DNA of 5,127 nucleotides. Origin: a virus (taxonomy: Duplodnaviria > Heunggongvirae > Uroviricota > Caudoviricetes). Below the pieces are notes generated by a model. The model was not told where the DNA came from. It saw only the letters and a program-made list of their open reading frames with translations, and ran no database searches. The translations under genes were made by a program, and so were the position numbers. Positions 1 to 537 of this stretch are shown here, piece by piece (the stretch's first letter is position 1; each line of letters opens with the position of its first letter). The DNA lies in IMG/VR virus record IMGVR_UViG_2648501318_000002, positions 1-5,127 of that record; one strand, given 5' to 3'.

Positions 1-106
1 CAACAAGGGAGACTGTCATTCCCGGTTCAAAACTCTGCTGAACAATAGCGATCTTTTCCTGTGTAGTACGCCGTCTGCGTTTCTCCGGTCCTAAGACATC
101 AATCAT
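1..106 (-). CDS. insC: IS2 transposase OrfA (InsC), N-terminal 35 codons only; rest lies outside the window
   Basis: Minus-strand ATG at 106..104 translates to [35 protein letters not shown], the N-terminus of IS2 OrfA. Not in the ORF track because it is cut by the window edge. Confidence 0.8.
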
Positions 107-197
107 CTGCTCTCCAATGACTAGTCTAAAAACTAGTATTAAGACTATCACTTAAATAAGTGATATTGGTTGTCTGGAGATTCAGGGGGCCAGTCTA
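1..197 (-). mobile_element. IS2 (IS3 family) left end, partial; continues beyond the window start
   Basis: Reverse complement of 1..197 reads TAGACTGGCCCCCTGAATCTCCAGACAACCAATATCACTTAAATAAGTGATAGTC...ATGATTGATGTC, which I recognise as the IS2 left terminal repeat and leader. The element terminus is at about 197, from recalled IS2 end sequence rather than an alignment. Confidence 0.85.
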
Positions 198-537
198 AAT
201 TGCCAGCACCCACGTTGTAAACGAATGAGTAAAGAGCGCCGCGCGTTGTTTCCGGTATATCGACTTCGATGTACGGGTTAATTTGTCTGGCGACAGTGGC
301 AAGGTCTTTATTCAAGAGTGCTTTGCATTCTGCTTTGGTATACGTTTTACCGAGCATGATGTCTTTTCCTGTATGCCCGTGACATACAGTCCATACACCA
401 ACAATATCTTTGTATGGTATGTAGCTGACACCTTCCAGACCATCGTTACCACTTGGGCCAGTGATTAACACTGATGCTATAGCAATTGCTCCGCCACCAA
501 TAGCAGCAGCAACGGCTTTTCGTAATGATGGAGGCAT
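148..537 (-). pseudogene. rrrD: Phage 21-type SAR endolysin (T4-lysozyme-like muramidase), C-terminally truncated by IS2; only 198..537 is phage-derived
   Basis: 129-aa ORF with a Gly/Ala-rich N-terminal signal-anchor-release segment ([18 protein letters not shown]) and E35, D44, T50 in the lysozyme catalytic positions. Residues 1-113 are endolysin-like; the last 16 residues ([16 protein letters not shown]) and the stop are read from IS2 sequence. Intact homologues are about 165 aa (recalled). Confidence 0.8.

Follow-up and report, generated by a model that had tools for sequence, protein, structure and literature searches.

The closest described relatives of the lysis locus studied here are those of phage 21 (S21-R21-Rz/Rz1) and of prophage DLP12 (essD-rrrD-rzpD/rzoD), with which it shares the gene order, a 71-aa pinholin of the S21 family and a downstream Rz gene with Rz1 embedded in it. 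In the phage 21 system, Sec exports the endolysin R21, whose SAR segment keeps it tethered until the S21 pinholin collapses the proton-motive force; R21 is then released and refolds (PMC6116005). Cytoplasmic endolysins are not passed by a pinholin (PMC6116005). The endolysin encoded here is identical to RrrD of DLP12 at 112 of its first 113 residues. The chains of RrrD (PDB 4zpu) and R21 (PDB 3hde) reach residue 165, whereas the gene under study is split by IS2 after codon 113.

The window (the whole stretch of DNA that was analysed, 5127 bp) is a piece of lambdoid prophage in reverse orientation, as read from Pfam matches and the list of ORFs. Its minus strand carries a ybcN/NinB-like gene (4470..4015), ninE (4015..3845), ybcO (3891..3562), rusA (3565..3203) and ylcG (3206..3066), followed by a quuD-type gene (2597..2980) for the Q antiterminator that drives late (lysis) transcription (PF06530, E 4e-53; annotated quuD in strain CV839-06, locus L002 11597-11980). 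An intact porin gene of the plus strand (1326..2408; Pfam Porin_1, E 3e-153) is found between Q and the holin. A consensus scan identified a GC-rich, terminator-like hairpin at 876..897 of the minus strand (AAACCCGCC...GGCGGGTTT and then a T-run), approximately 125 bp upstream of the holin start. Judging from lambdoid gene order, this is where tR', the target of Q antitermination, would be expected. The intact essD/S21-type class II holin (pinholin) gene (537..752, minus strand) codes for 71 residues that match the Pfam family PF04971 "Bacteriophage P21 holin S" (E 2e-35, positions 1-63/64); it is annotated essD and its stop codon overlaps the endolysin start at 537. Both window termini lie in multicopy insertion sequences (IS2, 1..197; IS1, 4880..5127), the pattern of a short-read contig that breaks off at repeats. 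No Rfam family matched the window at gathering thresholds. A hybrid -35/-10-like site that a promoter scan returned where rrrD meets IS2 (221..192, minus strand) was dropped: one such site, versus 3.3 expected by shuffling, is at chance level.

The ORF at 148..537 (minus strand) codes for a chimeric product of 129 residues. Residues 1-114 align to RrrD (4zpu, E 1.4e-72) and to R of phage 21 (3hde, E 8.3e-72), with one and two substitutions respectively in the endolysin part. The rrrD/R21-type 5' fragment (199..537, codons 1-113) ends with the Asn codon 113 at 201..199; from codon 114 onwards come 16 codons of IS2 and a TGA stop at 150..148. A preliminary description, made from the nucleotide sequence alone, had recognized a phage 21-type SAR endolysin read leftward from 537 with 113 native residues and with its last 16 residues and stop supplied by IS2, and had proposed an alignment to R21/RrrD to locate the end of homology, which falls at residue 113/114. 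The description had the composition of the ORF right. The SAR segment spans approximately residues 1-27, within a Gly/Ala-rich amino terminus whose residues 1-33 are those of R21 (3hde) and RrrD (4zpu). Direct counting finds E35, D44 and T50 in the ORF, aligned identically to both structures, which bears out the earlier statement that the SAR segment and these three positions are kept. The match to Phage_lysozyme (PF00959) covers profile positions 3-83/125 only, and RefSeq annotates the 5' fragment as "lysozyme RrrD, incomplete, missing C-terminus". Intact homologues had been put at about 165 residues, in agreement with the RrrD and R21 chains. The 129-aa product does not contain this complete lysozyme domain of ~165 residues, the rest of which is encoded 1.3 kb away, past IS2; the ORF is a disrupted member of the family (a pseudogene) and not a short natural variant. 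Direct data on experimental carboxyl-terminal truncations of R21 were not found in a literature search.

On the opposite strand, positions 1..197 match bases 1-197 of K-12 IS2A without gaps and with 10 mismatches (94.9% identity, E 1.7e-88). The match stops exactly at 197 with ...GGGGCCAGTCTA, which reads on the other strand as the IRL tip 5'-TAGACTGG; positions 190..197 are CCAGTCTA, its reverse complement. The orfA start codon is at 106..104 (minus strand) and 35 codons are read up to the window edge, a fragment matched by Pfam HTH_Tnp_1. The IS2 left end with the first 35 codons of orfA was thus correctly recognized in the preliminary description. The window end also agrees with the published IRL sequence of IS2, which adjoins orfA, and both tips of the full-length element agree with the published IRL and IRR ends (PMC3299598).

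The full-length element was found in the chromosome of CV839-06 (L002 7867-9197). It is 1331 bp long, has the tips TAGACTGG (IRL) and TGGATTTG (IRR), and carries open orfA (121 aa) and orfB genes oriented like the lysis genes. RefSeq notes a programmed frameshift for its transposase, to which PGAP gives only the name "IS3 family transposase". The element resembles IS2A of K-12, which lies within yaiX, in its length, both tips, the orfA/orfB arrangement, the 5-bp duplication and the simple, gene-splitting insertion, but it differs from IS2A by 58 substitutions, with no indels, over the 1331 bp (95.6% identity). ISfinder counts elements with ~95% or more nucleotide identity as the same IS. At 95.6% identity for the complete element and 94.9% for the window part, on the border of this rule, the copy is best called a variant or isoform of IS2 as far as its sequence goes. 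Further IS2 variants are present in other genomes, with pairwise identities of 96.4%, 97.7% and 97.9%, and PGAP uses the name "IS2" only for near-canonical copies. The IS2 copy of strain ETEC1731 (L001 7868..9197) is 1330 bp long and differs from that of CV839-06 (L002 7867..9197) by one 1-bp indel and no substitution; the indel may be a homopolymer sequencing error.

These two strains came from a megablast of window positions 1..760 against 5426 complete E. coli genomes, among which only CV839-06 and ETEC1731 match at 100% across the IS2/rrrD junction. Both are porcine enterotoxigenic E. coli (ETEC) with closed chromosomes, CV839-06 from a diarrhoeic piglet in China and ETEC1731 from a pig in Belgium. 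CV839-06 contains the whole window at 100% identity over 5127 bp, including the strain-specific IS1 junction, while ETEC1731 contains bases 1..4880 at 100% identity and has no IS1. In both chromosomes the two ends of the element can be read. The window-side junction is ...GGGGCCAGTCTA | AATTG CCAGCACC..., where AATTG occupies 198..202 (CAATT on the gene strand, rrrD nt 336-340), and the far junction is ...GATGTTCTGA AATTG | TGGATTTGCCCC... The two copies of AATTG directly abut the IS ends, at L002 7862-7866 and 9198-9202 in CV839-06 and likewise in ETEC1731 (L001). The remaining 162 bp of rrrD (the last 52 codons, 114-165) follow directly past the far IS2 end in both strains, and removing the IS together with one copy of AATTG in silico yields an uninterrupted ORF of 165 codons collinear with RrrD/R21. 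Further on, Rz is intact (L002 7246-7719, an ORF of 157 aa annotated with 153 aa) and Rz1 is embedded in it in the +1 frame (L002 7305-7487, 60 aa, MRKLKMMLCVMMLPLVVVGC..., with a lipobox-like LVVVGC). RefSeq gives the same order in both chromosomes: essD, rrrD (missing C-terminus), IS3-family transposase, rrrD (missing N-terminus), rzpD, iss/bor, ylcI, nohD, terminase and head genes. The tail genes likewise lie beyond IS2, after Rz/Rz1, Bor/Iss, terminase and head. The insertion cost no phage DNA: 1.3 kb away, the 3' part of the endolysin gene, Rz and Rz1 are all undamaged. We privilege, with high confidence, the explanation that an IS2-type element inserted by simple transposition into codon 113/114 of the rrrD/R21-type SAR endolysin gene of a phage 21-like lambdoid prophage located beside icd in a porcine ETEC lineage.

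The preliminary description, whose sequence-level statements all stand, had read the same DNA as an IS2 that replaced the 3' end of the gene, with some 50 carboxyl-terminal residues and the Rz/Rz1 spanin genes missing, and had suggested reading the other IS2 junction for a 5-bp duplication and the rest of these genes. That junction holds all of them in CV839-06 and ETEC1731. The element is a simple insertion of 1331 bp with duplication of AATTG, the 52 missing codons stand directly past it in both strains, and in CV839-06 both spanin genes are open. An IS2-associated deletion that removed the endolysin 3' end and Rz/Rz1 from the prophage had in its favour that nothing of rrrD past codon 113, nor any spanin gene, is visible within the window, and that IS elements are able to mediate adjacent deletions. 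However, since the window ends inside IS2, such a loss cannot be judged from it, and the far junctions, which lead through AATTG into rrrD codons 114-165, Rz and Rz1, contradict a deletion for both strains. The window could stem from a third strain, but it is identical base for base to CV839-06 over its 5127 bp, IS1 junction included, and a deletion is most improbable. Even less credence can be given to an assembly artefact, namely a chimeric contig joining an IS2 repeat to prophage DNA. The position of both window ends in multicopy IS elements is typical of short-read contig ends, but the closed chromosomes of the Chinese and the Belgian strain, which are independent of each other, share the identical junction, each with a complete IS of 1331 or 1330 bp flanked by a perfect 5-bp duplication; the chimera was rejected on these junctions. 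For annotation, "interrupted" and not "deleted" is the proper term for a gene that meets an IS at the edge of a contig, as long as the far junction has not been seen.

The simple insertion bears on lysis in the following manner. In the 129-aa product the SAR segment and the catalytic Glu, Asp and Thr are present, but residues 114-165, approximately one third of the GH24 fold, are missing. Domain coverage argues that such a protein would have no substrate cleft and would be inactive. The gene is inactivated as a coding unit, and detachment of a third of the GH24 domain has very probably abolished endolysin function; the icd prophage is therefore probably lysis-defective. The preliminary description had drawn the same conclusion, which is reasonable as far as the endolysin step goes. 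Upon induction, the Q-dependent late transcript would still yield the S21-type pinholin, so that the cell would be depolarised and killed; with no muralytic enzyme, the murein would stay intact and the virions would stay inside. Q-modified polymerase is terminator-resistant in lambdoid phages. It may read through IS2, and Rz/Rz1 and the genes for morphogenesis would then not necessarily be silenced.

An insertion that is real in a prophage that nevertheless lyses its host, either by residual muralytic activity of the amino-terminal fragment or through endolysins of co-resident prophages, appears unlikely. The fragment does retain E35, D44 and T50 as well as the SAR segment, and Rz and Rz1 are intact, but the third of the lysozyme domain corresponding to Pfam positions 84-125 is absent from it. 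As to other prophages, it is common for E. coli genomes to carry several rrrD-like genes, at up to 6 places per genome, and complementation in trans by the SAR endolysin of a co-induced prophage is possible. This would require, however, simultaneous induction of that prophage, and only another SAR-type enzyme would serve since cytoplasmic endolysins are barred by a pinholin (PMC6116005).

The prophage, of ~43 kb, adjoins icd, the phage 21 attachment locus, and lies between int/xis and a tail-fibre module (CV839-06 4008000-4057000, L007). In ETEC1731 (L017, L018), int, xis, red, the repressor region, replication genes, the nin region, Q, S, Rz, terminase and the head and tail genes, including those for the tape measure and J, are annotated as intact. 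Among the essential lytic functions of this otherwise essentially complete prophage, only R, with its IS2, is obviously damaged, and this lesion is in principle reversible by precise excision. The annotation of ETEC1731 further flags a frameshifted methyltransferase gene and a tail-fibre-assembly fragment. The tape-measure and J genes of CV839-06 are flagged "internal stop", which may reflect real decay or sequencing error; the CV839-06 prophage may be defective regardless of IS2. Free, inducible phages of ECOR strains (PhiR68_2, PhiR34_1 and others) are 95-96% identical to the window over ~4.45 kb (95.9% for PhiR68_2 and others), and in PhiR68_2 and related free phages the "lysozyme R" gene is uninterrupted. 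The IS2 split of rrrD is ordinary prophage decay and was already on record, RefSeq having a split rrrD pseudogene in both genomes; beyond annotation the result matters little. Its biological interest lies in a near-complete icd prophage of porcine ETEC with a single, potentially reversible knockout of the endolysin, which bears on particle release and hence on the possible spread of the iss/bor and porin cargo.

The porin of 360 residues is a cargo protein of lysogenic-conversion type whose gene has the position of nmpC in DLP12 and of lc in phage PA-2. PGAP names it OmpC, and it is OmpD in related phage records. The nmpC::IS5 allele of DLP12 is an IS-disrupted gene of a cryptic lambdoid prophage. 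The present locus resembles it in that an IS has knocked out a prophage gene and left the flanking DNA in place, a step of gradual decay, but the gene hit here is that of the endolysin, and the porin gene is intact. At the right window end, IS1 (768 bp in CV839-06) is flanked by a 9-bp duplication, TGAATAGAA, whose copy in the window is at 4871..4879. It cuts a hypothetical gene from 125 codons, intact in ETEC1731, to 49 (truncated ORF 4735..4884). Because ETEC1731 carries no IS1, this insertion is younger than that of IS2.

The insertion in the window belongs to a series. Other events were gathered with the search of window positions 1..760 and with a second search using an artificial junction of opposite orientation, and all were mapped on the 498-bp rrrD gene. 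At least 12 independent insertions of IS2-family elements were found in this R21/RrrD-type gene (L004, L005, L006, L008, L010-L016 and the insertion at window 198..202). Insertions recur at two sites, nt 336-340 and nt 248-252, with three events each, and these events involve different IS variants and prophages and both orientations. At nt 336-340 (CAATT) are found the IS2 variant of the icd prophage of CV839-06/ETEC1731, in the same orientation as the gene; a canonical IS2, 99.8% identical to that of K-12, also in the same orientation, in the Rac-side prophage by trkG of PK8566, whose rrrD flank is 95% identical; and a canonical IS2 in the opposite orientation in the Rac-side prophage by trkG of 400660. 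At nt 248-252 (CCAGA), the Rac-side prophages by trkG of LD39-1 and EC2001 carry, in the same orientation as the gene, IS2 and ISEc36 (81% identical to IS2), respectively, and another prophage, in PK6, carries IS2 in the opposite orientation. Single insertions lie near rrrD nt 204, 253, 269, 290, 391 and 402.

For 12 events distributed uniformly on 494 positions, the probability of one triple hit is ~9e-4 and that of two triple hits is <=7e-6; these figures apply to events gathered by searches built around the window's junction, whose independence is judged by IS sequence, orientation and prophage context. Two triple hits being so improbable by chance, the pattern points to a target-site preference. 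The recurrence in rrrD may come from a target hot spot of IS2, from selection against lysis genes or from both, which are not separable with these data. A reading for which we see the balance as even is that the R21/RrrD gene has true hot spots for IS2-family elements at nt 336-340 and 248-252. Such hot spots could arise if IS2-group transposases favour certain sequences or structures, possibly together with selection for lysis knockout, and the window insertion would then be one case of a recurrent route of prophage domestication. A literature search for papers on IS2 hot spots or target specificity brought nothing usable, only mechanistic papers on IS2. The repeated use of two 5-bp sites of rrrD gives a small, testable lead on the target choice of this element.

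Duplications of 5 bp are present at the junctions whose flanks were read, except in PK-F-10132; the flanks of PSJ-16 were left out. In PK-F-10132 (L016 ~2690..2706) the 8-bp IRR tip CAAATCCA occurs twice in tandem before rrrD resumes. In PSJ-16 (L012 31..2697) the IS2 inserted in rrrD is itself interrupted by another IS2, which points the other way.
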